Notes under the pieces: model-generated
What the model was told of the DNA's origin: nothing
The model's database searches: none
What the model saw: the letters and a program-made list of their open reading frames with translations, nothing else
Origin: Psilocybe cubensis
Taxonomy: Eukaryota
Direction of reading: 5' to 3'
DNA: 64,000 nucleotides
Assembly (NCBI GenBank): GCA_017499595.2
Contig: CM038998.1
Location: 992,001-1,056,000 of the forward strand
Translations under genes and position numbers: made by a program
Shown: positions 10,600 through 63,900 of the stretch, piece after piece
Layout: the number at the start of each line of letters is the position of its first letter
How positions within the stretch are numbered: position 1 is the stretch's first letter

Positions 10600-11371
10600 G
10601 GACCGATGTAGCTTCAGTATAACTTCCAAGCCTAGTCCTCATAGATCTCCTCAACTTGAAGCTGGCTCTATCCCAAATCCCGGTCAAATCTCTACCACTT
10701 GGCACACTTCTCCATATTCCAGCCAAGTCATGTACATGTATTTATTTCTGCCAACAGTGATTTAGTATTAGTAGTATTGTTGCATTGTCGCAGTTACAAC
10801 TCGGACGCACAGGGCACATACATAGTATACCTAAAAAAGGAAGTCAAATGGACAAATAAGGAAATACTTATGAGGTGCTGGGGCCCTGGCAGCCTGGCTC
10901 CAGCATACCACAGCTTGTTGATTTCCCTCAACATTCGGGTTGAGCATTTCTTCACAAGGGTATGTGATGCAAACACGAGCCACTCCCTGCCCCTGTCAAT
11001 ATACAGACATGGACCGACGTAGCTTTACTGTATCAAACTTCCAAACCTAAGTACTTCTCATAGACCTCCTCAAGGCTTTATTCCCGAGTCCCGGTCAAAT
11101 CTCCAACACATGGAAATATTCCAACCTAGGAAGAACTAACAACATTCTTCTCCAATGTTCTGTCGTGTACATGATTTTATTTCTACCAGTGATTGACTAC
11201 ATTATCGTAGTATTTGTTATATTCACGGACACGCAGGCACATTGTATACCTAAAAAAGGAAGTCAAATAACCAAATAAGGGAATACATACAATGTGCTGG
11301 GTCCCTGCCTCCCTGGCCCCAATCGTCAACGTACCATCAGCGACTAATTTGCCGATTTCCTCCAACATTCG
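10600..11371. repeat. Diverged tandem duplication, units about 10600-10937 and 11011-11371
   Basis: Shared blocks ggaccgaYgtagctt, cccggtcaaatctc, gtatacctaaaaaaggaagtcaaat and caacattcg occur in the same order in both units. Confidence 0.85.
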
Positions 11372-14300: not shown

Positions 14301-17300
14301 CAAGCTCCCTAACCAGCCCCTCATCCGCAATCCCTTCATCCGTCATCGCACTCGCAAGCGTCCACCGCCTGCGCCCCAGCTCTTCCCCCTCGCTGATCTC
14401 CGCGTGCCGTCGGAGGAGCGGGGGGCGCGGAGGCGCGTGTGGGTGGGTGTGGGTGGGTGTGTGTGGGTGGGTGGGCGCGTGGGTGGGCGCGTGGGCGTTT
14501 TTGTGTGAATCCGAGTTCGAGTTTGAGTTGGCGTTGGCGCTCGAAACACCCGATGGAGCCAACTTGGACGTAGGCGACGCATTAAGCGAGATAAACGGTG
14601 TACCACTCTGAACCGCTGTCCCCACTGTCACCGTATCGCGCTTCTTCCTAAGCTTTCCACTTGCATTTGCATTCCCACTTCCACCCTCCTTCCCATTTAC
14701 ACTCTCCTTCCCCTCCTTCCCCGCCGACGTCGAAGGAAGATCAAAATCCGACTCGGATCCAAGCATAAACTTGCTGATCTTCCTCCTTTCCACCACCACC
14801 AGCGATGTTGACGACGCCGGGGGAGGGGGCGAAATAGACCGCGTATGATGCTCGATCAACGCTCGCACGCGCCCGATACCACCTCCACTGCTGCTACCAC
14901 CAACGTCCGATGAGGAGCGCGTGTGTCTGTGCGACTGTCCGTGCGCTTGTGATTGTGGATGGGGTTTGACGAGCGATGCGCGGCGTTTTCGGTTTGGGGG
15001 TTCATTTTCATCTTCATTTTCAATTTTATTTTTATTTTGGGGTGGATGTGGATGTGGATGTGGATGTGTGTGTGTGGGTGGAGGTGCGAGCGTCTACATC
15101 ATCAAGAAAAAAAGAGAAAAAGAAGAACAACGAAAAGAATCAGTTCAGCAATCGATGATGCAAAAAACATAAAACATCAAATATAAAACGGAAAACGAAA
15201 AAAGGGGTATCCCAACCCCCAATCCCACCGGAAAGAAAAACAAGCAAAACAAGCAAAAAAAAGAAAAAAAAAACTCACGACGCGCAATATCCCCTGTTTC
15301 TCAACCCCACCACCAACACCACCAATACCACCTTGCTCTCCCTCTCCCTCTTTCTCCTTTTCCTTCCCTTTTCCACCCAACCCAACCACCAATTCCCCAT
15401 TCCCATTTCCACTCCCATTCCCATTCCCATTCCCACTCGGACTAGAACCAGAAGAACCAATCCCCGTAGTCCACCTCTTCCACCTCGCAAACGACGACGT
15501 CGATGACGTCGAAGATACCGTTGAGGGCGGTGTCGTTATCAAAGTCGAGCCTGACGCCGATGTTGACGCCGATTCAGAGGTAGACGCCTCGGACCCCAAA
15601 TTGCGCTGTAAACTCGGGTGTGCATGTGCATGCATCTTCGTCGTAGTCGTCGTCGTATCCATTGAAGGATGCGAATGAGAATTATGATGAAGATGAGAAG
15701 GAGAAGGAGATGACGACGAAGAAGGAGGAGGAGGAGGAGGAGGAGGAGGAGAAAGGCCACTTTCGCGTACACGATACGTATCCGGGGATATCTGACCCAA
15801 TGACGAAGTTTGTGATGCTGATGTCAACGCTGACGATGAGGATAATAATAAAGATAAAGATGAGGATGGTTCCGCAGTCGCAGTCGTGGACGAGGACGGG
15901 GTGCTAGTGCTGTTAGTAGCAGTAGCAGTAGTAGCAGTAGCAGTAGTGCCAGTAGCAGAAGCAACAACAACAGCGCTCCCATTCGCACTCCCATTCGCAC
16001 TCGCACTAGGGTTCAAATGAGAACTAGAACTAGAACCCGAGTTGGACTCGGACGCACGCCTTCTCGACGGGCGGAGGCTAAACGTCCTCGCAAGCAACGA
16101 CGCGCGCTTCGAACTCTTCCGCGTCTGCGCCTGAAGCTGAAGCTGATCGACAACATGCGGCGGCGGCACATCAGACGCACTTATAAACACCGCGCTATTC
16201 GGTGTGCCTGGCATTCTAGTCGCTGACGACGACGCTGAGGAGGGGGAGAGGGAAGAGGGGGAAAGCGAAGACGGCGAAAATGAGCGCGCGGTTGCTGTTC
16301 CCGTACCCAACGACGACGACGCGGAGACAGCGCGCGGGGTGACGAGGACAAATGTGCTTCCCGAGCTCGGCGTGCCGCTGCTTGCACCGCTCGCGCCTAT
16401 CGTAACGGTATTAGGTGACGTGCTTCCCGCGCTCAGATGAACAAAGGACGTCGAGGACGAGGATGGGGACGCAGATGTAGAGGAGGAGGAGGAAGGGGGC
16501 TGGGTGTGTATAGGCGGCGGGAGGTGGTGGCGCTTTTTTGAGAGTTTGGCTGGAGACGCAGAGGTAGAGGCAGAGGGAGAGAAAGCGGTGATGGTATCCG
16601 CTGAATCGGTGTGTGCGTGCGAAGGGGTATATGCACGGTGGTGGTGGTGGTGGTGGTTATAAAAAGAGGAAGAGGAAGAAGAGGAGGGGTGATGGTGAGG
16701 GGTATCGGTATTGGTATTAGCAAAAAAAAATGAGGGCCCAGACCGTTTACTTGAATGGGCTTTGTGTTCGGCCGGTGGCTGAGGCTGGTGTCGCTGGGAC
16801 AACGCAGCGTCCTGACTAGCTTGGTCGTGGTGGTGGTGGTGGTGGTACAGACCCAAGCATTCTGACTGTGAAGCAGCGGGGGATTGTGGATGCGAGCAAG
16901 GCGTGAGGACGAGGTATGGCTCATGGGTGTCATCATCGTCGTCGTCATCGCCATGACGCGCACGCGCGGCAGGTGCAGCGTGGGTGCTGGTCTTGGGCGT
17001 GCTCGCGGTCTGCATGTGCGTGTACGTGACTCCGGGACCTATGCGCTCTTCATTATGTTGCCGTCGCGAGGCAGACGGAACGGGCCCTCCGTGGTTTATA
17101 TTAGAAGAAGCAGAATTATTACGGTGATGACGTCTGCTTCGGCTGCTCCTGCTGCTACCTGACCTGCGTTTCTTCAGCTTGTTGGAGGGGGACGATGGCG
17201 GGGACGGGGACGGGGAGGAGGAGGAGGAGGAGGAGGATGCACGGAAGGCCGCCGGGTCGAAAATTGGCTCGGCGGGAAACGCCAGGGGCAGCAGCATCGG

Positions 17301-20300
17301 TGGCGGACTGGGTGGGTTGCGGCGGCGTCGTCTGTCCTTCCTACTCGTCTTTCCCTTGACGCTGCTCACGATAGAGGACACGCCCGAGGAGAGGAGGCTG
17401 ATGCTGGAGAAGGACGAGGCGACAGAGGAGGCGGTGGTCGTCATCGATGCGGAGGACGGGGCGCGGGCGAGCGGGTTTTTGGAAAAGCGGTATGGGTTCG
17501 GGTGGGGGAGGAGGAGGGAGGGTGAGAAGGAGGACCATGTCGAGGAGGACGACCGCGACGACGACATGGGGGAAAAGAAGAACAAGGGTCAGCTCAGCTC
17601 AGAATTACGCCAAGGCTATGTATAGGAGTCCAACTTGCCTGTCATTTAATTTATTTTCTTATCCCTTTATGCACTCAATCCGTTATAAACCTCCAACTTC
17701 AAAATTGACGTCATTTCACACTTGTGTTTTTTTCACCTTTTACGCTATAAAATGCCGGCTCTGGTTAGATTGCGGGCCAGAGTGCTACAAGTCACTTTAC
17801 CTTATCTTCACATAACATCGATAACTCGATCTTCCCCCAAATGAACCGCAAATCCTTCCTTCTTTTTCGCCTCGGCTTCTCCTGCTCGGCACCCAACCAA
17901 CACCACCGCCCCCATCCAACCTACCACATCTCTCTCGAAATGAACAAGGTACATTCATACCCAAACACAACTTAATTAATTCTCCTTTTCCCAGGTCCCC
18001 TATGATTCGAATCGCACACCCACTCGCAATTCTCAGACTCCTGCTTCTCGATTCCTCCCTCTTCCCTTCTCCTTCTCTTCTCGTACTGGCCCTGCCTCGT
18101 TCTATCCTGTTGTATCTGTCAAACCCCAACTGAAAACCTGCTGAATATATCCGAATCTTCATCCAGCCGAGCCGAGTTTCTGGGAACTTGGAAAGACAGC
18201 CGTACTTTTGACTGATGCTGCTTAGTGCTACGTTGTTTATGTGCTATGCTCTATTTTCTGTCATGCCTCGAGGGTCACGTCCAAGTCTGAATTAGGCACT
18301 GCCTGGCTGGCAGCACCAGATGGACACAAACAAAAACTCCCTTGTCGACATCTCAACACTCAACTTGAACGTCCTCGACACTCAACACCCAACACCACTT
18401 CACGAACTAGCTCCAATTCCAATACCAAACGCCCAACCTCAACCTCCCAACCCACCCACCCACATCCTAACTTCCCACCCAACCCGCCAGATGTCATGTG
18501 GCGTATCGCATCGCATCGCAGCGTATCATATCGTATCGTATCGCATCGACAAGCCTCAAATTCTCAAATTCTATTTCTCACAAAGTCAAAACGGTGGCAA
18601 ACAGCCACCGCCGTTCGTCTTATCCCTATTCTTGGATTATCCCGGTCTTCAAGTTACTTTTATCTCATAATTCCCATCCCATCCCTTAAATATCTTCATC
18701 CTCACCTTCACCTTCACGTTCTTTAACCATGTTATTTAGTAACCCAGCACAGCTTCAAAGGTCGAACTATGCATACAAACCCAAACCTCGAACGCTCAAA
18801 GTTATGCAACAACCAGTGGGGCAGAGGACAACGTCATCGGCCGAGCTAGGGTCATCTTCCAGTACCTCGTGCTCGAGCTCGAGCTCAAGTCGAGGGTACA
18901 CGTACGCGGTCGCCGTCGCCGTCGCAGTCAAACATCCCAAACATCCCAAACAGAAACAGAAACGGACATAGAAACGGGCACAGAAACGGCCACAAAAACA
19001 AAAACAAAAACTCACCTGAACGCACTTGAACACACGATAAAGGAACCACACACACGTCCAAGAAACCACGATCCCCAATCCCCAATTACCGACCCAGGAC
19101 CCAGGTCTCTCTCCCCGTGGGTTGTTCAGCACAACGCATACGCGTATACAATGATACATCGAAACGTACTTGAACAAAAAAAAGGATTTACACACGTCCA
19201 AAAACCGAGGATCCCAATTCAACGACCCAACGACCCAAACACCCAAAGTCTCTCCTCAGCCCAATGGGGCTCCCCAGCACGCGTATACACGCATATATAT
19301 CGGGTTTAAATTTTCCTTTCACTTCTTACCGTTTTTTATTGTCAATTCACACTTTCCAGCTCCAAATCTCCAGCTCCAGAACACAACAACCTCATAGGAT
19401 ACGGTGACCCTGACCCCAAACAACACCGACGTTTGACAACACAATACAAATACAGCGTTACAGTAAAGTAACACAAAACCATCAAAATCCGTACTTACGG
19501 CGTAAGGCGCGTATAATAATTATGATACATATTTTACAATGTGTTAACATTCAATGTTCTCTGTCCAATATTTTCTCTTTTGTTTACACTTCCACTTCAT
19601 CCACTCCTAAACAACCCATGTCAAGGTATACCCCTCCCCTGCCCCCCTCTCCCGAACAAAGCATTGAACAAAGCGTTAAACAACCTCATCCCCGTACCTA
19701 AAACACCCCCTTAAATCCAAAAAATCGACCTGCGCTGAAAAACCAAACACAGCACCCTTGAGCTCATTTTGTGCGTTTTTATTTCATCGCCTCCCTTTCA
19801 TATGATCCCTTTCCTTTTCTTCTTCTCCCATCTCCCCTCCTCTCTTCCTCTTCCTCATCGTCGTCATCAAGAGGCAAAAAAAAGCTTCTACCAGAATATA
19901 TAGACTCGTTCGGCGCGTGCATACCAGTGTGCGTATGTGCGTGCGCTTGTGTGTGTGTATGCGTGGGCGTATGCGTATGCGTATGCGTATGTGTATGCGT
20001 CGACATGGGCGCAGGCGCAGACACAGGCGCAAGCGCAAGCTTGGGCCGCGTACGCGTATGCGTGCCCACATGCGCGCGCGTTCTAGATACAGACCTCCGA
20101 GCCTCCCTCGCCTCATCCTCAATCAGCGGCGCCGTCGACGCGCACGTTATTGGCAATGTCGATGTCAATGCCAATGGCGAAGGCGCAGGCGACGACGCCC
20201 AAGCCGAAAGCAAAGGCAAAGTCGAAGGCGAAGGTGAAGGTGATGGCGAGAGCGACGACGCCCAAGCCAAAGGCGGCGTCCAAAGCGAAGGCGAAGGCGA

Positions 20301-21300
20301 AGGTGAAATCGCCAACCTCGAGGGTTTCAATCCGGTGCCAGTCGATCCAACCTCGATCGGCGGCAAAGGCAGCGGCTTCTCACCTAGAACTCCCAGTCTA
20401 CCACCTGCACGGGCACGGGAACCTGCGCCCACCCGCTGGGTGTCCGCATCAGTGTCCCACATCACCTTCGCCTCCTCTTCCACGAACGACTCGCGCAGAC
20501 CGAGCATGATGCGGGACGTCGCGATAGAGCAAGGGGCAACCATCAGCCTATGTGTACGCGTGCGGCGCGGCGTGTGTGCGTGGTTTGCGTATGCGCGTGT
20601 TTGCGTGTTTGCGTATATTGCGCGTGCGTCATGGTACGGTACGATTACGATATAGCCAGTTCGTAGCGGACATGCAAAGAAAAAAACCCAATAAAAAGTC
20701 AGATTTCCCATCTTTAAATCGACCGGCCCAATGCACAGAGTACAAATCAGACACATACGGAGTGTATATAGCTGAAATATTAATCTATCAAAATATATAT
20801 CAGCCTTCAGTCACTTCGGAGGATTCAAATGAAACAAGAGGTAGTTAAATCTCAAAGCTTGAGCTTGAGACCCCGCACAAAAAGAAATTGTAGCATCATA
20901 CTGGAAATAGTACCATAACACTCACCTCTGGTACGTCAGTGAGAAATGACCCGATCGACGTCAACCCGACGGAGCCTAGGTATCATTGAACAAAAGAGCA
21001 GATTATGTCAGTATTTCATGTATCTCAAAATTTTCATTCCACGCGACTCGAGAACCGAGAACCGAGAAGCGAAAAATGAAAAAATGAAAAAACGAAGCAT
21101 CGAATCGAGAATCGAACATCGATATTCGAGAATGCCGCTGTACGACACCCTTAATAAAACATGAGGGGGGTGGGGGAGATGGGGAGCACGTCAAACAAAA
21201 CTTACACGCCACACTAAAGTAGAGTACGCCGCCGCTATATTGATATCGAATTTTAGTTAGTACAAAAAGATGTAGTGGTGGTGGTGGTGGTTCCAGACCC
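11380..21300. repeat. Microsatellite / low-complexity-rich domain
   Basis: Dense (gga)n, (gtg)n, (tagcag)n, (cccatt)n, (tccttg)n, (tgcgta)n, (atcgt)n and (aaac)n tracts occur in coding, intronic and intergenic sequence and are largely absent from the rest of the window. Confidence 0.85.
12094..17567 (-). CDS. Dbl-homology (RhoGEF) domain protein with very long low-complexity regions, about 1,700 aa
   Basis: Exons about 17567-15279, 15093-12891 and 12783-12094 join in frame (ILRV|TLAPPP; LLYR|DLLAHTP). DH-domain motifs RELILTERHYLAHLQSL and ELAILPTQRVMRYVLLYRDLLAHTP are present. An upstream exon cannot be excluded. Confidence 0.8.
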
Positions 21301-25855: not shown

Positions 25856-26486
25856 TCAAATAGCCCGACGCAGGCGCTTGAGAGGGAAGCCGTCTAGCAT
25901 AAAGGAATGAGACAATGAATGTTGATTTAAGCAGACAAGGGGAAAGAGGCGCGCACCAAGGCCAACTCTGGTATAAGTTCTCTTACGCATCTCTACATTG
26001 CTCTCCAAAACCTCTTGGGCCTGCCTTTTTTTGGATGGGGATGTGCGCTCCAATGATGAGTATGCGTGAGCTGCTTGGTGGCCAACCATTGGACCCAAGC
26101 CCTATCGTTGACATGTTTTAAAGGCACGCCCCTATGTTGATTGCCCAAGGGAACCAGAAATTCGTCGTAATTTTCATCAAGTTGGACCAAGAGTCCCTCT
26201 TTATATCTCTTAAAGGCATCTTGGAAACCATCCTACGAATAGTATATCAATGTAAATTGGGTAAGCGGAGACAAAGACAGGCGCACCGCAATTCCATTGG
26301 TTTATTGGGCTCATGGTGGTTGCAAGTTGAAAAAGGAGGAGTGAGAAACGATGAGACACATTGACATCGATTTCATTTGCATATGGAGGGCATGTTTGCT
26401 TCCGAGACTCGTCGAAGGCACTGTAGATGGCGGAAGCTGAATTCAGGAAAACACGCTGAGAGGACGACACGCTGAGGACCTTTCAT
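25856..26486 (-). pseudogene. Degenerate tandem paralog of the FG-x-H motif gene
   Basis: The exon FQDAFKRYKEGLLVQLDENYDEFLVPLGNQHRGVPLKHVNDRAWVQWL aligns with FHQAMEKYREGLINKVDKHFCDFVVPFGKKHFGQRLGECRDPSWSIWL. SPSKKRQAQEVLES lies in another frame. There is a 1-nt insertion near 26460 relative to the 29780 copy. Confidence 0.65.
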
Positions 26487-26615
26487 GTCCATTGTAAGAA
26501 GTTGAGCCCAGTCTTTTGAGTTCCTATTAAAATCAACCTAAAAATCAAAGATCGTGGTCACCGTCCAAGTCGAGAACATCGTCCTTTAAGTCAAGCGTGA
26601 TGCGATCAATAATCT
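26389..26615. repeat. Dispersed direct repeat copy 1 (copy 2 at about 29684-29900)
   Basis: gcatgtttgcttccgagactcgtcgaag, aagttgagcccagtcttttga and gtgatgcgatcaat occur in both copies. Confidence 0.9.
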
Positions 26616-29256: not shown

Positions 29257-29780
29257 CTATGTCCGCTGTGACGTTGTTCTCTGAACCTGTGCCTCCCTCG
29301 GCGACTCATATGACATTATTTTCCGGCAAGAATTCGAACACTTACCATTCAACACACTAGTGTAGAACTTCCATAAAAATATAAGGCTCGACTCGATCCG
29401 AACCCGAAGTTCCAATTTGCCGTGTGTAAACCACAATGGTATTGTATCATCCAGTTTTGGGAGATATGTCGAGAACCTCATGTTGCAGGTTAGGCCGCGA
29501 TCGAGGGTTGCTTCTGCGATGAACCAATTGTTGGGCAAGGAAGACTTTTCAAAGGCTTTCGGAGCTATAGTGTACGCCACACGTCTGTCAAATGCACGGA
29601 ATTGAAGCGCGACTTTGGTCCGTAACGGCGCGACACATCCACGCTGTGCGTAAAGCGCATGTAGACAGAATGTATCATATGGCCGCATGTTTGCTTCCGA
29701 GACTCGTCGAAGATACTTTGGAAGGCGGAAGGTGGGTTCAGCAAGACATGCTGAGGGACTACACGCTGTGTACCTTTCAT
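29257..29780 (-). pseudogene. Hypothetical or degenerate ORF sharing its 5' end with the 26486 copy
   Basis: MKGTQRVVPQHVLLNPPSAFQSIFDESRKQTC matches MKGPQRVV/QRVFLNSASAIYSAFDESRKQTC. No visible homology downstream. Confidence 0.4.
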
Positions 29781-29900
29781 ATCCGTTCCAGTAACAAGTT
29801 GAGCCCAGTCTTTTGAACTCCTAAAATCGACCTAAAATCGAATCGCATTGTGGTCTTGAAGGAACATCGGTCATTCAAGTCAAGTGATGCGATCAATCTA
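29684..29900. repeat. Dispersed direct repeat copy 2 (copy 1 at about 26389-26615)
   Basis: Same shared blocks as copy 1. Confidence 0.9.
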
Positions 29901-29992: not shown

Positions 29993-30898
29993 ATGACGCC
30001 TACAATACCGCGCTGGAAAAGGATTATTGAAACTGCTCTTGCTGAATACAAAAACCAAACAGGTACGTTGTCCACTTTCGAATCGCCCTTGGGAGTGTTG
30101 CCTCAATCTAGCGACGGGGCTGGAACTCGCGCTCAGCGCTCACCATTCGAGGTATCGCGCTCGTCTGATTAAAACAATGTTAATTTTCCCTTTATATTAC
30201 CAGTAATCCAGATCGCTACTACGGACAACACTAGACCGACCCCCCGAGTACGATCCCACATATTCCGTTCTTTTCTCTCCCACCCATCCCACCCATCGCT
30301 ACCACTCCTATTGAGCTCAACGGACATCCGTACCCCAAAGGTCAGCCAAATAGCAAACCACAAAGCTGTCGAAATCGCATGGTGGATCGACGGCACACAG
30401 CAGCAATTCCGCATACTAGCGAATGTGTACATCGTCCCTGAGCCCAACCACCCGTTACTTGCACCCTTCAGGAAGCAGCTCGAGGAATCCAAATTAGAAG
30501 CAGGAGATGCTATCTCTCTTTACCCTTCTACTGAGGAATGGGAATCGCAGCGCAAATCCATGTTCGCGTCGATGAGCGCACATATGCGCGCGTCATGGTG
30601 CCGGCCCACGCCCGGCTCACCACTCTCCCTTCATGGCGGTCCCGAAGCCGTTAAGAACTGGCCAACACGCGTTGTGCAACCTGACAGGGAAAAAATGAGT
30701 CCCGAGGAATTTAAGGAAGCTCAAAAAAATTGGGAGCTAGCGTTGAGCAACTTCGCTCTGGTGGTCATTGATCCCTATGAGGTCGATTTTGTAGATTTGG
30801 GGGGCGCTAAAGGGAAGTTAGATCGCCGATGGCTCTTCGTAAAGGCAAGGGAGGGAGAATATGGCTGGAAATGGACAGAGGAGGAACTTGTCCCCTGA
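29993..30898 (+). CDS. Pyridoxamine 5'-phosphate oxidase-like FMN-binding split-barrel protein
   Basis: MTPTIPRWK..|VIQIATTD..PRVRSHIFR..STDIRTPKVSQI..VEIAWW..QQQFRI..MRASWCRPTPG..ALSNFALVVIDPYEVDFVDL..EEELVP*. One intron at 30063-30203. Confidence 0.85.
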
Positions 30899-34397: not shown

Positions 34398-37349
34398 ATG
34401 GCTGATATAGCTCCCCTTTCCCAGACCATCATCGCAACAGCAACAAGCACAATGAGCCCAGACGGAAATTCATCGACGTTCAGTGCTGTTCCAAGCACAG
34501 CTACTGGGGTAGAAACCTTGAAGCCTGGACAAACGTCCGCTTCGTTCAAACACCCCTTGGACCCACTGTCTGCCGAAGAGGTAAGCAAGCCGTATTGATG
34601 GACTGACCTACATTTATATTGCGTCATTTAGATTCCGGTAGTGTCTCTGGCAGTTCGACAACATATTGCTACCAAGACTGAAATCAAGGCAATCAAATTC
34701 ATTACATGCACACTTCTTCCACCTCCCAAGAAAGTTGTTTTGGCTTACCTCGGAATACCTCTGGGTCCTGGCGAAAAGCCTGAAGCTCCCACGAAGATTG
34801 TTAGGAGAGCCGAAGTCGACGTAAGTTACACTATCCACTTATTAGTAGTGCCACATCTCAAAAACTTCGTTGTTGATAGTTCCTGGACGTCCTCAATGGG
34901 TGAGTAGGATCGAATGCACACTTGTTTATTTTTGGTTACGCTAATAAACGCCCATTAGCCGCGCATACAACTCTGTGTTGAGCCTGAATGATGAAACGGC
35001 TTCATGGGAGGTCAACACTTTTACTCTCCTGGAGGAACATTTCCATCCCCAAATATCTGTGGAAGAGCTCATTGCATGTGAGGTTGTCGTAAAAAATAAC
35101 CCTATCATTCAGAAATTGGCAGCGGATGTCGGTGGGTCTAATTCAGACACGTTGTTTATAACATACTCAGGTCGTCCGCAGGCGTTCTTCCCGAACAGAT
35201 TTTCTGCGATGGATGGTCTATTGGTTATGATGACCGTTTCCCTCAGAAACGACGTGTGCAACAGGCACTTGTGTACGCTCGATTTTCCGAGCACGATAAC
35301 TTATACGCACATCCTATGGTTCGCGAAAAACTTTAATTTTACAACCATCACCCTCACCTCAGTCATTTAGGACTTCATTCCTGTTATTGACGCAAACTCG
35401 GAAGAACTTCTTGGTGTTGGTTAGTGCATATAATATATCATACAACGTTTTCCTTCCCCTAACAATATGTGTATTAGACTTCCCTCCTCACTGGATTCGC
35501 GCCGAGGATGGATCAGTTAAGTTGAGCACATATAGCACTGCTCCTCCTCCTCTCGCTGCGGACGCTCTCGCGGCATCTAAACGTGAACGAATTCCACCCC
35601 CTCGTAAGGCATGGGACTTCTTGCCTGATCTCATGGCCGAGACCGAAGAAGGAGGATACAAACCAAGGACCGACCTGAAACCCTTGCACGTTGTTCAGCC
35701 TGAAGGTGTGAGCTTCAAGATGGACGGTCATGTTCTGGAATGGCAGAATTGGAAAATGCATATTGGTAATTTGGTTTCATCTCGTTCCCTATGCCTTTTT
35801 CTCATAATTCGGTCCAGCTTTCACCCACCGAGAGGGAATTGCATTATCCACTATCACGTACAACGACCATGGAGAAATTAGGCCCATTATGTACCGCTTG
35901 TCATTGGCGGAGATGGTTGTCCCGTACGGTGCACCCGAATATCCTCATCCCAGGAAATTCGCTTTCGATTCGTGAGTTTATTCGTCATTCCCCGTAAGAC
36001 TAAGATCTTTAATCAACGACAAGGGGTGAATACGGCATGGGTACAATGGCAAATGAACTTTCCCTTGGCTGCGACTGCCTCGGCCAAATTCATTATCTGG
36101 TTTGTAAACCTCTTTCGATTCACCATTGATCTTACTTACCGGAGTATTCTATAGCCCGGTGCTTTCGTAGCGCACGATGGAAGCGCGATGGTCATCAAGA
36201 ACGTCATTTGCATCCATGAAGAGGACGCTGGTGTATTATGGAAGCACAGCGACTATCGCCCCAATGGAAGGTCACAGACCGTGAGACGCAGAAGGCTGGT
36301 CATCAGCATGGTCTGTACTCTCGCGAACTACGGTAGGAGTAATTTTATTTCATATCATTAGGCTCTAAATTAAATTGTTTTCCGCAGAGTACATCTGGAA
36401 CTACCACTTCTATCAGGACGGAAGCATAGAATTTGAGGTCCGCCTGACTGGCATCCTGTCAGTTTATCTTAGCAAGGACGGAGAGCCGAACCCATTCGGC
36501 ACCACTGTCGCCCCAAACATTAATGGGCATTACCATCAGCATATGTTCAGTGTCCGTGTTGACCCCATGATTGACGGTCTCAAGAACACTGTTATTGAGT
36601 CTGACATCGTCCCTCTTGATGCCCAAACTGGGTCAAAAGACAATTTTGCTGGCAACGCCTTCTACTCAAAAGACACGACGGTTGAGGTCGAGTCCGGCAG
36701 GAAGTACGACTTTGCGACTGAGCGTAGGTGGCGAATTGTCAACAAGAACAAGCAACATTATAGTTCCGGGAAGGACGTTGGATATACCATTGGTGTCAAG
36801 GGTGGAGCTACGCCTATGATGGCCAAAGCTGACGGCTGGGCGGCCAGGAGAGCTGCATTCTTGAAGAATACTCTTTGGGTTTGCCGAGATGAAGAGGGCG
36901 AAGATAGCGGAACAGTCAGAATGTGGCCGGCTGGGAAGTATGTCCCCCAAACCAAAGAGGAGCCCGAAGACTCTGTCGGTTCTTGGGTTGAAGGCAAGAA
37001 GAATGTCGTAAACGAGGATCTCTTAGTTTATGTCACTGTCGGTGAGTGTTGATGTAGCTCTCCGATTTATATGACGTGCTGATCACGACGACGTACGCAG
37101 GCACTACGCATATCCCTCGCCCAGAAGATTGGCCTGTGTGAGTAGAATGCTCCTTAGCCTTTTTGCTGCCTTCATATTGACTATCTATTAAACCTTAGTA
37201 TGCCCGTTGAACACCTTACTGTGTCGTTTAAACCGAATTCCTTCTTCAAGGCCAATCCTAGCATGGACGTACCTGGCAGCAAGGACCCCCTCAGCGTCCC
37301 TGCGTTCAATGATGCTGCGACCGGTACCAAGGACAGTTGCTGTCATTAA
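34398..37349 (+). CDS. Copper amine oxidase (TPQ-dependent)
   Basis: HPLDPLSAEE, LYAHP, PLHVVQPEGVSF..WQNWKMH, LAEMVVPYG, GCDCLG, IHEEDAGVLWKH, the TPQ motif TLANY|EY, Cu ligands HQH, and THIPRPEDWP. Confidence 0.95.
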
Positions 37350-51912: not shown

Positions 51913-54900
51913 TTAAGAGTAAATACTGTCTTCGTCAACGGCTCTGAGAGCTCTTAAAAATGACGGAGATATGGTTTTCGCATCGTCAAAGATGCGCAGT
52001 GATGGTGCAAGGCCTCCCGGGGAGGCTGCCGCTTTGATATGACAAAGGTCGAGGAACGCCACGGTAAAAGCAAATTTCGGCGAGTCACAATATGCGTACG
52101 ACGCTTTGATCTGTTTGAGTTGTTTTTTGAGGAGGAAGATCCCTTCAATCGGTGCTGCATAAGCCTGGGTACATTCCAACATCAAATCTTCGTTTTTGGC
52201 CTTTTTGAACGGTTTGCCTTTAACAGGCGACTGTTTTTCTTTCGCCTTCGCACAGGCAATTATCCACTTGTCTTTCGCCTTGTTGACGTGTGCTCGGATG
52301 TTACTCAACTCCTCCAAGAATTTTGGCATTTTTTGAGATTCTTTTGCCTCAAGTGCAAATTTGAACATATCGTCATATGGACTTCTTAGGTCTTTGTCCT
52401 GGTTGTCGTATTTCGAAGGCCTTTTCGCTTCATACCGCTCGAAGAGCTCATCTGCTTTCTTCTTAGCGGCGTCGTTGAGGAGGAAAAGTATGTCGCGGTT
52501 AGGTGCCTTATCCTTGAGAGCTTGGATATCTGGAGATGTGTTGCTGTACTTCGCAAGGTCCTTCGCTTTGATACCCTGTTTTAGTCTATGACCCGTCTTG
52601 CTGGCATCCAACAACGTCGTGAATCTGATGAATTATTGTCAGTATATCCTTCAAATTCATAAAAAAAAGGGTACATGTATGCCAGGCGAATAGTTTTTGA
52701 GTCATGGTAGCCATACGCGATCGCGGCATTCTTGTGCATCATGTTATAGAGCCCAACCTCAGAGTCGTTGAGATTGGCCAGGAGATGAGCCATAAATGCC
52801 TCGTTTGTCGCGCGTGGCGAAATATATTTATTATGACAGAAGTCGCGCACGCTCTGGACTTTAGAGCCTGATTCGAAATTGTCCTTCATGAAATCCTTTG
52901 GTTGCTCAACCAAAGGCGTATTTTTGAACGGCGCGACAATGTCCTCGGCCCATATCACAATGGATTGATCTTCAGCACCGGTTCAGATATTTATCTGCCA
53001 CCAGACCAAATTGTAACCATACCTCCGTCCATATCTGACAGAATTCATGAGCGAGAAACTATTATAGACAGAAATTTCTGTACATACCTCCATCAGAGAG
53101 TTGATTGGCCAAACTTCTATATCCTTTGATCGGCAAAACGACAACATCCTGAAACAATTCCAACTCCCTATAGTAACAAGCAGTTACCTAGAAATCGAGG
53201 TTAACCATTGTCAAAGCATGGAAGATCAAACTACCTTCTTCATGTCGGAGCCCAACATGATCGGATACCGACCAATCTGTTGCGTAACTGTGTAACTATA
53301 GCAGTGCATACCCACAAATTTAACCCACAATTACTGGCCCTTCTAGGGTATGCTTAAGCATGCTTGATGCTGGGTCCTTACGAGGTTTGGAGAACTGATA
53401 AAAAATCTCGTCTTCTTCGAGAACTCCGAAATAATCTATAAAAGGGTACAATTAAAGCATCGCACAAGAGAACACCAACAAGTGACCGGACCTGGAGCAA
53501 TATATGCGCCAAGGGATTCAGGAATCGGTATACGATACTTTTGTATGGAAGTGCGCATGGCACTATCGACGATCCATCGAATCTTGTCGTACAAAAGTTC
53601 CATTTCAGCGGGGTGAAACCCAGCCTGAATAAGTTCAGCAGCGACTTCATGAAGGGCATATGGTGCTAACAAAAGTATTAGCAAAGGTAGAAAAAAGCAA
53701 GAAGTTCGTTCGCTTACCGCCACTGTACATATTCCTGCCTGTATTCAAGGTAGGTCCATCATCAGCACCTTCAACACCATCCTCATCGGCATCGATGTCA
53801 TCATTATCACGGCCCCAATCGCGTCCTTTCAAACCAAGTGCACGGTTAAGAGCAACTGAAATTCGCTGGGTTCTAGACCCAGAAACATTGCCGCATTTAT
53901 TAATGGCGTCCCATAAGAAAACCATTGCGTGTGGTCTATCCCAGTCCATGAGCGGTGCAACATCTTCTTCCAGTCCTTCTTCCATAAGCCGTATAAGTGT
54001 CTCGGCAGGAACTCCGTTGTTAAAAAGGTTTACAATGCTCTGTTCGGATAGACATATAGAAGAAGAGGGACGTGAAGGGCCGAGAAGGTCGAAAATCCTA
54101 TGGGAGCGATCAAACTCGCTATACTTGATCTTGTTCTGAGAATTTCGAATCCAAATCTTCGGTTCGTCAGAGGTATCGTCAGGATGTAGAATCCACAAGC
54201 CCTTTGCACCAGCAATACGTCCTTGTACGGCTGCAGGAAGTGCTTCGTAATCCATGTGCTTGACGATGGCATGTAAAGCTGAATGGTTTATATAACCACA
54301 TCCATCAGTCATTAATTTTTCGGCCGGAGGATTGGGTTTTCCTTCAGGCCAGTCATCGGTGGCTGAAATTACAGCAATCTGGTTAGCACAGCGCGCGGAT
54401 GATTAGAATGTGGACGTACTAATGTCATCTATGAAGATTATATTTTTTGCCTGGAATTCCAGGGCAGGTACCGAATTCGACAAACCAATAGCAAAACGCG
54501 TCGCATACTTGGTGATTGTCTGGAAAGAGAAGACGTTGTCACGATAGCATAGTTGCATATCAGATCACTAACCTGGTTGTAATTCTTGGGTTCTGCGAGA
54601 GGATTGTGCCAATTGATAAATTTACAAAATGGCATGCGATACTGATCACCAAAGAAGTCCATGGATAAGCGTCCATAGTTCTGGTCAGTTTCAACCATGT
54701 AAAGTGAACCTTCTTTAGAGTGGAAAGGGACAAAGATTCGACCACATAGCACAAAACTTCTCGTGAGAAACTTTACCACTTGATGACTTTCTTTCTGCAG
54801 AGTTTGTTCAGGAATACGAAGCTGAAGAAACCTCCTTGAACCATAGAAACGAGCAAAACGATGAGATCGGCGTTTCTCCATGGGCTCGAGAATAATCTTA

Positions 54901-57537: not shown

Positions 57538-59789
57538 CCGCAGCTCCCTCGCCCTGTCCGTGGATTCGTGTCGTACCTGCTTGTTACGCTATCATCTATT
57601 TTACCGCATTCGTCTTGTCTCTTCATGTATTCCCCATGCTTTCGCATTACATCTCACTGTGTGATTATAATCCCTAGTTGTGAGTGTCATCTTCTATCTC
57701 TATGTTCCACGCAACTCTCAAAATACTCATTGCTACTCCGCAGACTTCTACCACCGTTGTATTAGCTACTTGTTCAGCATATATAACAATGCCGAACCTA
57801 TATTTGTCAAACGGCGATGTTAAGTATCAGTTTGGCAGCAAGATACTGTATCTCGATTGATGCTTCAGCCCATATTTTGCAACTTTTTCCTTCGACAAGC
57901 CAGAGCGGAATGGGAACTTTATTACAAACCGTTCTCCATCGGTTTGGGCTGGCAAGAAATCGCTCAAATTATCCCGGTCCCAATCGACGAGAAATTCCTT
58001 CATTTCGGATGCCTCAGAGAACGAGGAACAACGGAGAAAGAACCACATTTCCAACACGCTTAACTTTTTTCCTCTCCCTCAACCTTCACTCACTCTGTAA
58101 GCTTTTATTAGCCTCACAACTTTTGCCTGCCTACATTATTTCGCGTTGCTCACGTTCATGCCGTTAGACGTTGCTCTGTAGCCAATCGATTTATTCTCGG
58201 AGGTCTTTACAAGAGAAAATGTTAAGCGATTCTTCCAGGGATGCGGCAAAACTGGTTGATCTCGGACAAATAACTGGGACCCATGAGAAAAAAACGATGA
58301 TGTCAAGGTAAGAGCTTGACTGTACTTTCAAAGCTTTGAGCTATCGCCGAAAAACAGTTGGGCCATTCCCCAGGTATTCAATGATACCATATGAACCAGT
58401 GGGGGATGTTCAGCACGATCGCCGACAAGGTGAAAGGATCCGAAGAGTAAGGCGAAAGTGTGGGGCCATGCAGTCGTAAGTCATACTCTCAAAGACTCAT
58501 GTTGCCATGACCTTCGCAATTTGCTGAAACTCAAGTGGGCCTCCAGACATCCCATCTCAAGGCAATCGGTCCTGAAGGCCAAGGAACGAGGGAACGATAG
58601 ACACACTTTACGTCTCGCATTCGTTCCTTCCTCCACAGGCACACCCGATTTTCGGGAACAAGCAAGTAGGTGTCCATTCTTCGTATCTCATTGAATAGTC
58701 CCTTGGGGATTTTACATTGAGAGGCTTGTGGTAAAAACTCTAATTCATATAACAAAGTAGCCGCAGGTTACTGACAAGAAACTGGCAAGGTGAATAAACA
58801 AATTGCCTCTTCATTGAATAGAAATCTTTTAGCACTGATCTTGCTTGCATTTGTTTGCTCCAGGTGTAAACTACCTGCCCCGTTTAGACGCATGGCCCCG
58901 GAGCTTGCTGGACTCGGCCTAACTTGGAAAATCTATCTCAGATCCTCCGTCATATAACAGACCGATTTTCGGCAATTGGGGATTCTGTTATCTGCAACAA
59001 AGCAAAAAGCGGGGAAAACGGAGGCAAGTTCTCTCATTTGTCCTCAGCGCTTTTCGATGTATTGCAATCCGTTTTGAAGAGATAGGACACCCAGGAAACG
59101 GCCGAACATGCTATGGGAAATAAGCGGCCGATAAGCCCGTAATGTAACTGAAGATATCTTTAATGAGGACGGATGCTGGATCGTCCTTGACAGGCCTTGT
59201 GAGGATGAGAGATAAACTTCTAACGGTGTTTCGTTGTGTCTCATATCGGTAGTTGTTTTATTGCCGTTATATTTTCCTTGTCTATTGCAACAGATTGCAA
59301 CTCTTTTGCAGAATCTTGGTATTGAATGTCCGTTTATGGGCAATTGTAGGCAATTGTGGACGCCATGTTGGGACAGGCAAAGGCCGAAACGCTCAATCCG
59401 GATATCTGTTCCCGATGGCGAGAATCAAAAAACAAGCGTGCAAGGTCCCTAATCCGTCGTTAAACCGGCAATTTCAAGGTAATACACTAGGCACGGTCGA
59501 GATTTGTAACCGTTTATTATTTCTTTGCGACCTTGCTTCACATATGCACCATCTTGGTGCTCATAAAGTGTGTTTGGTGGTCAGCTGTGCTCAGATGTTC
59601 TGGATATCCTAAGCCATAGACCAGGGGGAGTGCCCCCAACGAAAAACCAATTCGTTTACCGGAGAGATCAGCAAAGATAGCTTTATTTTCAATGCCATGC
59701 TTCATATGCCATGCCGTCGAAAAACTTTATTGCAGGTGACCATGGACGATCCCGGCCAGATGGCATACTGGATCCCGGCAATGTTCCTC

Positions 59790-60991
59790 AGGACCCCTGA
59801 CAATAGGCCCAGAGGACGTTCCGTCGGACGGACAAAAATTTTGAAAATCGACCCCTTCGGACGTTCCGAAACCGGACAGAAATCCCAGATTTTGAGCAAA
59901 ATGTCGTTCCAAAAATCCGGACAGAAAAGTTGCAGGACCGCCGAGGTCGATCCAAAAACCGGACATATATCGTGATCAACGACCCTCAAAATATAAGTCA
60001 TCGGTTAGTATAGAGGCTGAGCGTGTAGTCGCTCCCGCCCTTCGTATTGTGATACTACGTCGTTGTTTCTAATCTCAATATCGCCTTTTTAGTATTTTGC
60101 CCTTAGTAAACCCATAGTTCAAGAGAATAAAAAAGGCAATGAAAATGTTTGCAAAGCGAAATTTAGATATTATTACATAGATTTTCTGCATCACACATTC
60201 AATTGTAGTTCCTTTTTCTTGATGATAGGATTCAGATTGGCAAAGGTAAAGTGGACTATCAGTTGGAGCTGTTTCGATGTAGTGACTAATGATCACGCCG
60301 TACTTTAGTCATTGCTTTGAGTGAGAAACCAAACGGAAAGCACTCACGAAACCAGCCGGTTGCGACTACTACCAATGTCTGTGCCCTTTCAAAAGCATCT
60401 TTTCAAGTCTTCGAGCACAGTCATGGCCTCTACTTCACTGCAAGACCCACCAAAACTGCCTTGCTCAATGTATCTGAATTTGCACACCTGCCTTCCTGCA
60501 AGTTACTCACCCTCCTCTATCATAAACCCTTGTCTGTCACTGCAGCAGGTTTTGAAGTTCATGCGCAAGATATTTCGCTTTACAAGACATTGGTTGAGGG
60601 AGTAGGGAGCATCAAAAAAGCGATGAAAATGTTTGCAAAGCGAAACCTAGATAGTAGTACATAGCTTTTTTTGCATCGCATACTCGTTTTATGGTTTTGT
60701 ATTGTACTAGGCAGGTTTTTTTTTATTACAGTGATTCTTAACATTGTTCTGAAGCGTCCCATTTGCGACTGAACTCAGCTGAACGCGCGCAGCGGCGAAA
60801 AAATCGATTTTTAGGCCTGTCCGGACACAAATTGGGCCTCCCGAGGGTTGTTCCCGATTTCCGGACAAATTTTTGAAAAAATTGGTAGGTCGTTCTATAT
60901 CCGGACAGAAATTTTGAAAATCGCGACGGACAAAAAACCCAAAAATCGACCTTTTTCGGGAACGTCCTCTGGGCCTATTGTCAGGGGTCCT
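59790..60991. mobile_element. Non-autonomous cut-and-paste DNA transposon, 1,202 bp, with 33-bp perfect TIRs and an 8-bp TSD
   Basis: The TIR AGGACCCCTGACAATAGGCCCAGAGGACGTTCC at 59790-59822 has its exact reverse complement at 60959-60991. TGTTCCTC is duplicated at 59782-59789 and 60992-60999. Confidence 0.92.
60317..60664 (+). pseudogene. Residual coding fragment inside the transposon, possibly a transposase C-terminus
   Basis: A 115-codon open frame without an ATG start: NGKHS..ALSKASFQVFEHSHGLYF..EFAHLPSCKLLTLL..IKKAMKMFAKR*. Confidence 0.5.
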
Positions 60992-63900
60992 TGTTCCTCC
61001 CTGCCATTTGAGGGCCATCACCAACTTTGATGACCCTGAATCTAAAAAGGCGCTTCCAGTTGGCACGAAAGCGCCACATTTTATCCCACTTTGGGCGAAA
61101 AGATTTGATGTTACGAAATTCAATAATTTCATCCATATTGATCTTCATCTCCACACATGGTTAAGTTGGGTTGAGCCACGACAGCCACTTGCAACACTGT
61201 TCGCAACTGTCTTGGGTCATATGTCTGCCTCTCAGATAGTCTCTTGTGTCGGATTTATAAATACTGACTGCGTGAACAATTCAACTTAGCGTGATCAGTT
61301 GCTCAGGTGTTCAGTGGCCAACCGGCAGGCTGAGAGTCAATAAAGCCGGTCAATAGGTCCGCGTCTCTGCATTCTGTGAGAAGCGCTGATTTACAAATAG
61401 TTGTCACAGCCAAGTGCTGCTTAATGAATTTTAGCAGAGTAGATGATGGCAAATGATGGCTCGGTGTTAAAATTGGAATTCCTGTTTATGCACTGGTTCT
61501 TGCCTTGTTTACTCCACCCAACGATTGGCCAACGGATGCGCAAATATACTTATCGCTAAAGCACGCAATGCGGGTCTGGAGGCCCAAGTTACCCAAGGTC
61601 GAAATGAACTCCATTTGAGGGACACTCCGTCTCCCATAAGAAATATTTTCCTAGTGTATTCCGGATCGTCCAGACGCTCACGCGACGGGTGTTACATATG
61701 TGTTGAATTTGTGGCCAAGGTTTGAAGAGAAAAAAAAAATATTATCCAGGCTATCGCCCCGCCTTGACACACTCCTTCTGGCCGCCTTGCGCGCCGTGTA
61801 CATGGTTCTGGGATATGATGGTTGAATCAATTCATAAAACTCAGTCTGTCAACCGCATCTAGTCCTTCTTTGCTTTGATGAAGTCCACCTGGGCCTTGGG
61901 AAACGCCTCGTATTGTTAACATCCATTCCATATTTGAAGTCGGTGCTTCTTGAAGGCACCATAGGTCATTCACGGAGATACCTGGTTCTAACTGCCGTGT
62001 TAACATCTCATGAAAATAGAACAAGCGGCCTGTATCGAGCGATACCCGATAAATCGGCACATATTGTGTCTATTAGTACTGCAGAGTCGTAGAGAACAAG
62101 GCTCTTTGGAGAAACAATCTAGAGGACGAGCTCGGGTAAGATATGGACCTGGTCCCATACGGCGGTAGTAAGGCGAGCGAGGAGATAATATCTGATCACG
62201 GAGCGAAGACGCCATAAAATCGTCGAGAAGGACCAGAAGCACGCGCGTCGATGCAGATACAGAGCTGTATCTCCAGTGATTGACGCTACGAATTCTGCGC
62301 TAAGGTAGAAGATAGAGTAATTAGCTCGAGCATAAATTGCTTGTCGCTCGCTGGTGTTGGTGTCAATAAACTTCAATGTCTTTTGGAGAAACGAATTCGA
62401 CTTCCCTAGCGATTGATTGCGACGTCCTTCCTCCCCCACAGTCTCATTTGGCTTCAATATCGTCCGAGTCTGGTTTAGTACACGCACCGTCATGTGGGCT
62501 CATACCGTGGCGTAGTGTGCCCATTCAAGTGGCGATCCTGCGGAACTAGAAGGAAGACCGGGATGAAAATCGTCATCATATCATGGAAATCGAGAGCGAA
62601 AACGAAGGAACATCAAGAGAGCACGGGCCCCAACAAGCTACAGACAACATCAGTCAAGTAAACTTCGCCTGCGAAGCTCAAGGAGAAGGAGATATGTCAA
62701 TACGCTGCACGCGGCGGTGGCAACTAATACAATGCCAATTAAATCCATTTGACTGCGTAGTAAACAATGAAACTCGAAATAGACTGATGTCTCCAAAGGT
62801 CAGAACTTCCAGGACGGAGCCACTGACCGAGACGTAGTGTCCAAGGTCCTGCGACGTATACATATCAAGCCCACGGGTATTCTTGAGTGTCCGAAATGGA
62901 GAGAAGACTCGATCGTTGTACCATTATATTACTGACAAGGATATCGTCAAGCTCCGAGGACGAGACTCTCGCGATAAGCTGGCTAACAGAACAGGTGGTC
63001 TACTAGCATTGTCAGAGGAAGGCGAGTACCGAACGTCTGCCCACCACCTTTCTCATAGCTCCTCCGAGTATTTGGTGCTTTCATTCTATAGATATGCTAC
63101 GCCCGGGAGCATCAAAGCTGTCTGCACATGCTGGAGAACCCAGGTATACTACAGCAGAACGCTGCGGCAGGGCCTCATTAGTTGGATTACAGTCGTAATG
63201 AACAGTTTGTATGCACTTGATGTGCACACTCCAAAACAATGTCGTGCATGCCAATGATGATATTATCGTCTATCGTTCTTCTAACTGCTGCTTCTTTGTC
63301 TCCCATGATCGTTAAACGGAAATAAGGTCCCGTTCGGAATGCCGTCCTCTATTGCGAGCGAGGTATGCGAGCAAGATTTAGCATTGAATCAAAGTTCAAC
63401 ACGAATAATCATTCCAGGATTTCTAGCCACTCGGAGTCGTGCTAGAGTACCCGGACAAGAGCACCACGACAGATGATCAGTTTGTAAACCCAGCACCTCC
63501 AGTGAGAAACCGTAGTCCGAGCGTACAAAAGAGAAATAAGAAACACCCGATCGCAGGACAAAGTAGGCAGAACCAGTCACCCATCCATGGATAACAGAAA
63601 TAGTTTCCAATCTCATCACCCAGAACTTTTTTTTTCCACCCTCCAAAAAAGGGCCCAGCACGGTCGGAAGCGGTGTCTATTCTTGATAGCGCTGTCGCAA
63701 TCATCATACAGAAGGGAAAGCACCAAGAAAGAACAAGTACCCAGGCTCGGTCCCAGCCAAACATTTGCTCACGGGGCCGGGGCGGGGGTGTGTGCGAAAA
63801 ATAGCAGGGACGCCTTCCAGGTTTAAGCTGAGGGCGTGGATATCTTGGGGGTCCACAGCGACAAAATAGGCCCGGAGTCATGGGCGACAAGAAGAAGGCG

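Follow-up and report, generated by a model that had tools for sequence, protein, structure and literature searches.

An internally deleted transposon copy in Psilocybe cubensis that probably shows the ends of a barely described, P-like and Ulp1-fused fungal family

Transposition, hybrid dysgenesis, and horizontal transfer have all been studied with P elements as a model system, but in fungi P elements count as rare. The P element of Drosophila features perfect terminal inverted repeats (TIRs) of 31 bp, internal binding sites for the transposase, and subterminal repeats; its strand transfer takes place 8 bp apart and gives a target-site duplication (TSD) of 8 bp, and its non-autonomous copies of 0.5–2.8 kb are internally deleted, as summarized in a review (PMC7776569). 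The published signature of P transposases consists of D230 on β1, D303 on β4, a [C/D](2)H motif after β5, an insertion domain, and E531 on α4 (PMC8230255). A survey of fungal cut-and-paste transposons published in 2017 states that P is present in RepBase from "Only Pucciniales & Allomyces" and counts 11 fungal P copies with a transposase (PMC5751038). The element described here lies in a stretch of 64,000 nucleotides of Psilocybe cubensis (GenBank assembly GCA_017499595.2, contig CM038998.1, positions 992,001 to 1,056,000 of the forward strand)—hereafter the window, with position 1 as its first letter. It measures 1202 bp between its two TSD copies and is, with reasonable confidence, best explained as an internally deleted, non-autonomous copy of a cut-and-paste transposon that was mobilised in trans and stems from a family with a P-like, Ulp1-fused transposase. 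What the insertion displays is probably the ends and the footprint of a fungal transposon family that has hardly been described.

The ends of the element are formed by two TIRs of 33 nt that are 100% complementary to each other and separated by 1136 nt (Table 1). Both ends start with AGGACC. Directly outside of them, TGTTCCTC is found on either side, and the probability that 8/8 letters agree by chance at fixed positions is 1.5e-5. Because the C at 59789 does not pair with the T at 60992, the TIR comprises 33 nt and the TSD 8 bp, with no longer repeat. The TIR pair is outstanding in its surroundings: the window contains 11 inverted pairs with a length of 28 nt or more, and no other of them is 100% complementary, the remaining 10 being low-complexity pairs of 70–75%. 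When up to three mismatches are allowed, the 33-mer occurs at these two sites of the window only, and none of 100 dinucleotide-preserving shuffles contains any match. A first-pass annotation had reported a non-autonomous DNA transposon with perfect 33-bp TIRs and a perfect 8-bp TSD at this place, and both the ends and the duplication are present as it described them. The window holds no second copy, as judged by the same 33-mer search at up to three mismatches and by tblastn with 257 family proteins. In a collection of prokaryotic contigs, which says nothing of fungal genomes, the TIR sequence gave 0 matches, and the family alignment gave 34 pattern matches, 0 of them confirmed. Perfect TIRs, a perfect TSD, an open frame of 130 codons, and intact intron signals fit a recent insertion, here judged from one copy only.

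Adjacent to each TIR, the element carries four subterminal repeats with the consensus CCGGACA(R)AAA, often directly followed by TTTTGAAAATCGACC. The core CGGACA occurs eight times in the element as compared with 0.49 expected from its density in the window, with four copies 39–175 bp from the left end and four copies 64–175 bp from the right end. The reverse CGGACA is found just once, within the palindrome TGTCCGGACA at 60818. Since all eight subterminal repeats share one direction, the ends of the element are not mirror images past the 33-nt TIRs. The repeats are putative transposase-binding sites. As an observation in its own right, the one-directional repeats (59829–59960 and 60822–60927) confer an intrinsic polarity on the element. 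The spacer at 59986–60120 shows no protein homology in tblastn with the 257 family proteins. Rfam and tRNA scans of 59300–61500 gave no match, which rules out a short interspersed nuclear element or an RNA gene as the origin of the element.

In addition to both ends, the copy retains the last 130 codons of a transposase gene, one intron, and a 3′ untranslated region (UTR). The remnant comprises these final 130 codons together with the TAG stop; its frame is restored by splicing 60209–60245 to 60309–60661 in silico. The intron taken out in this way coincides with a gap of 21 residues in the alignment to the relative P0001 and contains two in-frame stops. Upstream, the homology ends abruptly at an in-frame TAG at 60206–60208, which is taken as marking the breakpoint of the internal deletion. 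The first-pass annotation had placed a remnant of 115 codons at 60317–60664: the remnant is real, its extent was set too small, since the homology runs from 60209 to 60661 when spliced; the stop-to-stop frame (60293–60664) has 123 codons. The residues that had caught the eye then—GKH, QVFEH.HG, and F.HLPS—are found in the translation of the remnant. In tblastn of the 257 family proteins against the window, 162 of 162 matches fall into the bins at 60000 and 60500 on the + strand, and the matches listed are confined to 60209–60661. Pfam finds no family in the remnant. The stop codon lies 327 bp from the right end of the element, and because of this distance and its orientation, the remnant is regarded as the 3′ end of the element's own gene. 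At 1202 bp, the element cannot encode the transposase and cannot move by itself.

A second piece of the same gene end, copy A, lies upstream of the remnant. It contains the last 19 codons, the stop, and approximately 20 nt of the 3′ UTR, and its frame 1 reads the same C-terminal peptide. Copy A was detected as a direct-repeat pair of 63 nt with 86% identity and could be aligned to approximately 80 bp; a longer duplication was rejected because the similarity farther upstream is at chance level. It adjoins the deletion breakpoint on the upstream side and may be a scar of gap repair.

The proposed mechanism accounts for both the footprint and the interior. Since the element is without a transposase of its own, it would have been moved in trans: a full-length relative elsewhere in the genome would supply the P-like transposase. 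This enzyme would recognize the 33-bp TIRs together with the CCGGACA(R)AAA repeats and excise the element, which would be joined to a target cut with a stagger of 8 bp; repair of the stagger would leave the duplication of TGTTCCTC, as in P elements. The internal deletion and the duplicated 3′ segment of approximately 80 bp would be what an interrupted gap repair with template slippage has left behind.

Relatives of the remnant were collected by scanning 1.84 billion cluster representatives exhaustively with HMMER at an expectation value (E) of 1e-3 or below. This gave 144 proteins, 23 of them at or below 1e-10, with P0001 as the best match (E 2.1e-31, 53% identity). P0139, a CUB-repeat protein with an E of 8e-4 and no aligned stretch, is probably spurious. 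In 128 of the 144 relatives, no more than 25 aa separate the end of the match from the protein C terminus. Most relatives are short: 94 have at most 200 aa, 26 have 201–400 aa, 10 have 401–900 aa, and 14 exceed 900 aa. The earlier suggestion that the remnant resembles the C termini of large, functionally unannotated Agaricomycete proteins is borne out. The 120 relatives of at most 400 aa are compatible with many truncated copies that retain the 3′ end of the gene. The wider family was searched with P0015, a large member of 1053 aa, and 331 proteins among 8000 scored candidates reached an E of 1e-10 or below. Among the 120 of these matches listed, all named proteins are from Agaricomycetes, including Mycena, Schizophyllum, Pleurotus, Lentinula, Trametes, Agaricus, and Amanita. 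Their annotations go no further than unnamed, hypothetical, or uncharacterized protein or else "ubiquitin-like protease family profile domain-containing," apart from a single UniRef entry called "DRBM domain-containing." Each genome contains several paralogues—9 of the 120 matches listed are from one Mycena strain—and this number is the copy pattern of a transposon, unlike that of a host gene.

The domain content of the family was determined by Pfam scans of 46 large members (16 and 30 in two sets) at curated cut-offs. Most full-length members feature an N-terminal Ulp1 protease domain, PF02902 (Peptidase_C48), found in 8 of 16 members of the first set and, at an E of up to 0.1, in 23 of 30 of the second. 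Two profile hidden Markov models (HMMs), A2 from 16 sequences and A3 from 48, were compared with the sequences of the PDB at an E of up to 1 and up to 10, respectively. Their only significant matches are Ulp1/SENP-type proteases, with an E of 4e-15 for the family profile against yeast Ulp1 (1euv). The P-element helix-turn-helix (HTH) family PF12017 (Tnp_P_element) passes its cut-off of 23 in two of the 46 members, namely P0246 with 25.5 bits and P0251 with 26.8 bits, and appears below threshold at the equivalent position in four more: P0129, one further A2 member, P0157, and P0167. Apart from Peptidase_C48 and Tnp_P_element, no Pfam family reaches its curated cut-off in the 46 members. This includes MULE, KDZ, and integrase families as well as hAT dimerisation and BED domains, for which an insignificant zf-BED match (E 0.069) is all that was seen.

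The fold comparison was carried out on the relative P0015 and not on the window element. Its AlphaFold2 model, built from the 48-sequence alignment, has a mean predicted local distance difference test score (pLDDT) of 80.0 and a predicted template modelling (TM) score of 0.71. A Foldseek search of 350,542 PDB chains with this model is headed by 6pe2_A (E 1.6e-10, target-normalised TM score (TMt) 0.61) and 6p5a_A (E 8.9e-10, TMt 0.64), both of which are Drosophila P element transposase in the strand-transfer complex. The alignments extend over approximately 520–530 columns as compared with targets of 442–456 residues, at a sequence identity of 12–13% and a root-mean-square deviation (rmsd) of 7.8–9.5. 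The next match is RAG1, with 6cim_A at an E of 9.8e-4 and a TMt of 0.24 and other RAG1 chains up to 0.33; Hermes follows with an E of at least 1.3e-3 and a TMt of at most 0.27, and Transib has a TMt of at most 0.32. P transposase chains thus lead the other matches by approximately seven orders of magnitude in E.

Conserved residues of the family can be placed on the same model (Table 1). The D-x-x-H-x-x-K-x-x-R-N motif, in the numbering of P0015, is conserved at D359 in 45 of 46 sequences, at H362 in 46 of 46, at K365 in 47 of 47, at R368 in 44 of 47, and at N369 in 47 of 47. The first-pass annotation had named this motif and had proposed from it a kinship to P and THAP9 transposases; the relatives indeed carry it (44–47 of 46–47 sequences per residue), and the kinship gains from the Foldseek ranking and from the two members past the PF12017 cut-off. 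The outcomes it had named as contrary to its proposal, a hAT or KDZ transposase or a captured host gene, did not appear, with no hAT or KDZ Pfam family at cut-off in the 46 relatives. In the predicted model, the residue string and secondary structure of P0015 match the published P signature. The core of the parent protein would be P-element-like, with an HTH and an RNase H-type DDE domain that is predicted to be split by an α-helical insertion domain; this forms part of the best explanation and is held with the same reasonable confidence. To the same extent, the parent family would encode a transposase of approximately 1,000–1,850 aa, seen here in Agaricomycetes only, and always with a family-specific C-terminal domain. 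This domain corresponds to 60311–60661 of the window and to residues ~905–1040 of P0015, and is modelled with a pLDDT of 93.4 as a small β-rich part and a helix of approximately 30 residues. Among PDB structures, it has no significant look-alike (best E 2.2), and weak SH3-like rows are not significant.

Several observations weigh against this assignment. What links these ends to a P-like protein is the position and orientation of the remnant only, and the subterminal repeats, with 8 of 8 on the + strand at both ends, are not inverted together with the TIRs. The best database match to the remnant reaches an identity of only 53%, and word-index searches of proteins, which are weak evidence, brought up nothing closer or longer, so that no candidate for an autonomous partner emerged from these searches. 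The element could alternatively be a member of an unrelated superfamily with 8-bp TSDs—hAT, Zisupton/KDZ, Merlin, or Novosib—that captured or came to adjoin a 3′ fragment of a P-like gene, so that its ends would be uninformative on the P-like family. This is unlikely. Ends of hAT elements are typically CAG/TAG, whereas those of the element begin with AGGAC. Wherever the element shows coding homology, the match is with the P-like family, in the orientation of an own gene and with the stop 327 bp from the right end, and the abundance of fragments that hold nothing except the C terminus (120 of 144 representatives with at most 400 aa) fits recurrent deletion better than a single capture. On the side of a capture stand the TSD of 8 bp, which is shared with Zisupton and most hAT elements according to a 2025 survey of fungal TET-carrying transposons (PMC12730594), the want of a full-length copy that joins ends and gene, and an interior that is rearranged, as seen in the spacer at 59986–60120 and the duplicated 80-bp segment.

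Another set of observations concerns the name P itself. PF12017 is absent in 40 of the 46 members scanned, further Pfam families of P transposases are found in 0 of 46, and a THAP domain is likewise found in 0 of 46; neither of the family profiles A2 and A3 reaches P transposase among the PDB sequences at the thresholds given above. By structure and motifs, the parent family is P-like, and by sequence profile and THAP domain it is not. Several transposase superfamilies are without a solved structure, and for this reason, proximity to P in the PDB leaves room for an unsolved sister superfamily. The family might accordingly be a separate, unnamed DDE superfamily that shares a generic architecture of RNase H fold and helical insertion, with P merely as the nearest solved structure. 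The low identity and high rmsd of the Foldseek alignments agree with such a separation, as do the profile that falls short of P transposase and the lack of THAP along with the Ulp1 fusion, the long linker, and the new C-terminal domain. It nevertheless appears improbable: a TMt of 0.61–0.64 is reached over nearly the whole solved P chain, with seven orders of magnitude in E down to RAG1, Hermes, and Transib; two members exceed the PF12017 cut-off, and four others show a weak match at the equivalent place; the D(2)H motif continues into K-x-x-R-N; and a TSD of 8 bp with TIRs of approximately 31–33 bp agrees with P. The absence of THAP in a fungal lineage is not decisive because THAP domains are restricted to animals, as stated in the review of P elements (PMC7776569). 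Far less credible still is a domestication of the large Ulp1/P-like proteins as host genes, of which the element would carry a transduplicated piece. All of them are annotated as ordinary proteins, and a THAP9-type case is known in animals (PMC7776569), but the high number of paralogues in each genome and the frequent truncation speak for a mobile family, the catalytic D, D, and E are conserved in all sequences with a residue at the respective column (D201 47/47, D308 47/47, E533 42/42), and the remnant sits inside a structure with perfect TIRs and TSD. An internally deleted copy of a P-like, Ulp1-fused transposon therefore remains the preferred explanation.

A wider reading goes beyond this and is held only tentatively, as somewhat less than an even prospect: the element may be the first view of the termini of an unclassified, Agaricomycete-wide lineage of the P superfamily. 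This lineage would feature 33-bp TIRs, an 8-bp TSD, one-directional CCGGACA repeats, and a giant transposase that is devoid of THAP, fused to Ulp1, and equipped with a C-terminal domain without a solved structural relative. In this reading, the perfect ends suggest a lineage that is still active. If true, it would put an end to the notion that fungi are almost devoid of P elements. As judged by literature searches only, the family is apparently little described. A described P-like or Ulp1-fused transposon of Agaricomycetes was not found in the open-access literature searched. In the 2025 survey, a term search found none of "P element," Ulp1, and protease (PMC12730594). A P-like core in several hundred Agaricomycete proteins that are annotated merely as hypothetical or "ubiquitin-like protease" has practical consequences: gene counts are probably too high because of such proteins, which repeat annotation probably overlooks or puts into the wrong class. 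Repbase classes non-autonomous elements by their ends and the length of their TSD (PMC4455052). The intact ends and the clean TSD of the present copy provide what classifying non-autonomous relatives requires, and they would also allow full-length elements to be mined and their activity to be probed. The element offers a convenient way into a fungal branch of a classic transposon superfamily that is widespread and apparently still unclassified.

Table 1. Features of the element (window positions) and residues placed on the predicted model of the relative P0015 (residue numbers)
Feature	Position	Strand	Details
Left TSD copy, TGTTCCTC	59782..59789	.	Read directly; identical to 60992-60999
Left 33-nt TIR	59790..59822	+	100% complementary to right TIR
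Left subterminal region, four CCGGACA(R)AAA repeats	59823..59985	+	CGGACA at 59829, 59873, 59918, 59960; spacing 44, 45, 42
AT-rich spacer	59986..60120	.	~135 bp; G+C 0.36 measured over 59991-60208
Copy A, ~80-bp duplicate of gene 3′ end	60121..60200	+	86% identical to 60605-60685
Exon fragment of transposase gene remnant	60209..60245	+	12 codons + 1 base; tblastn alignments to P0001, P0002, P0003 begin at 60209
Retained 63-nt intron	60246..60308	+	GTAAAG ... CTAAT ... TTTAG; GT..AG
Last exon	60309..60664	+	2 bases + 117 codons, then TAG stop at 60662-60664
3′ UTR or spacer	60665..60815	+	First ~20 nt common to copy A
Right subterminal region, four CCGGACA(R)AAA repeats	60816..60958	+	CGGACA at 60822, 60862, 60902, 60927
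Right 33-nt TIR	60959..60991	-	100% complementary to left TIR
Right TSD copy, TGTTCCTC	60992..60999	.	Read directly
D201	P0015 201		47/47 conserved; strand 195-204 of model
D308	P0015 308		47/47 conserved; just past strand 301-307 of model
Q-D359-S-K-H362-A-L-K365-T-F-R368-N369-N370	P0015 358-370		44-47 of 45-47 conserved; directly after strand 352-358 of model
Helical region	P0015 360-530		Almost wholly helical in model
E533	P0015 533		42/42 conserved; helix 533-545 of model
E536	P0015 536		40/43 conserved; helix 533-545 of model

At the scale of the whole window, the element is an ordinary insertion that lies in sequence without a recognised gene. An empty site restored in silico, with 59681–59789 joined to 61000–61289, shows an open frame of 132 codons over the junction on the + strand. 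The right half of this frame has no Pfam match and no usable Atlas look-alike, Pfam finds no family in the open reading frame of the right flank, and disruption of a gene by the insertion is not claimed. Exon-sized frames with Pfam matches, which represent exons of host genes, are found elsewhere in the window: a eukaryote-type RNA-dependent RNA polymerase at 53647–54399 on the − strand (PF05183, 4e-28), a copper amine oxidase at 36369–37049 on the + strand (PF01179, 3.5e-61), and a pyridoxamine 5′-phosphate oxidase-like frame at 30173–30895 on the + strand (PF12766, 3e-18). The region 12000–20800 reaches a G+C of 0.64 and is dense in short-period low-complexity repeats; it contains open frames of 756 and 803 codons, on both strands, without convincing Pfam matches. 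Direct-repeat pairs of 32 nt (84%) and 83 nt (83%) between 10671–10902 and 11082–11321, offset by 411–419 bp, suggest a tandem duplication of approximately 415 bp. Direct repeats of 71 nt (85%) and 33 nt (91%) between 26390–26526 and 29685–29823, approximately 3.3 kb apart, look like paralogous gene segments.

Compared with the Drosophila P element, the present element has the same TSD length of 8 bp, perfect TIRs of 33 bp versus 31 bp, and subterminal repeats near both ends, and in both systems non-autonomous copies result from internal deletion. For the P superfamily in general (P, THAP9/Pdre, Galileo, 1360), a TSD of 7–8 bp is characteristic, and that of the element falls in this range. The predicted core of its relatives is closest to the P transposase structures 6P5A and 6PE2, and its landmarks succeed one another as in P: D, D, the D(2)H motif, a helical insertion domain, and E. 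Unlike P, the family is without THAP and has in most members an N-terminal Ulp1 domain, a long linker, and a C-terminal domain that has no look-alike in the PDB; its profile does not match the P transposase sequence, the subterminal repeats of the element all point in one orientation, and the ends read AGGACC.

Elements of the hAT superfamily (Ac/Ds) are similar in their 8-bp TSD and in deletion derivatives that keep subterminal repeats. They differ in that the element does not end in CAG/TAG, the Hermes matches of the P0015 model remain weak (E at least 1.3e-3, TMt at most 0.27), and no hAT Pfam family is present in the 46 relatives. Mutator-like elements (MULEs) usually have TSDs of 9–11 bp, unlike the 8 bp of the element, and no MULE family is found in the 46 relatives either. 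KDZ/Zisupton elements, whose transposase features cysteine clusters, share a TSD of 8 bp (PMC12730594), whereas no KDZ family reaches its Pfam cut-off in the 46 relatives.

A C48 protease of the Ulp1 type is joined to, or encoded beside, a DDE transposase in Mutator elements of plants, hydra, and lancelet and in Ginger1 (PMC2836005). The present family resembles these in the combination of Ulp1 C48 domain and DDE transposase but differs in its core, which is P-like instead of Mutator- or integrase-type; in Ginger1, in addition, the protease is C-terminal, whereas it is N-terminal here. The fusion thereby adds a P-like case to a recurrent association of SUMO/ubiquitin proteases with DNA transposases (PMC2836005). 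Zebrafish Pdre2 and vertebrate THAP9 P-like elements have in common with the present family a P-like transposase, an 8-bp TSD, and internally deleted copies with intact repeats. Such copies are taken in the review as a sign of recent mobility (PMC7776569). Compared with these vertebrate systems, the present family is fungal, fused to Ulp1, and much larger.

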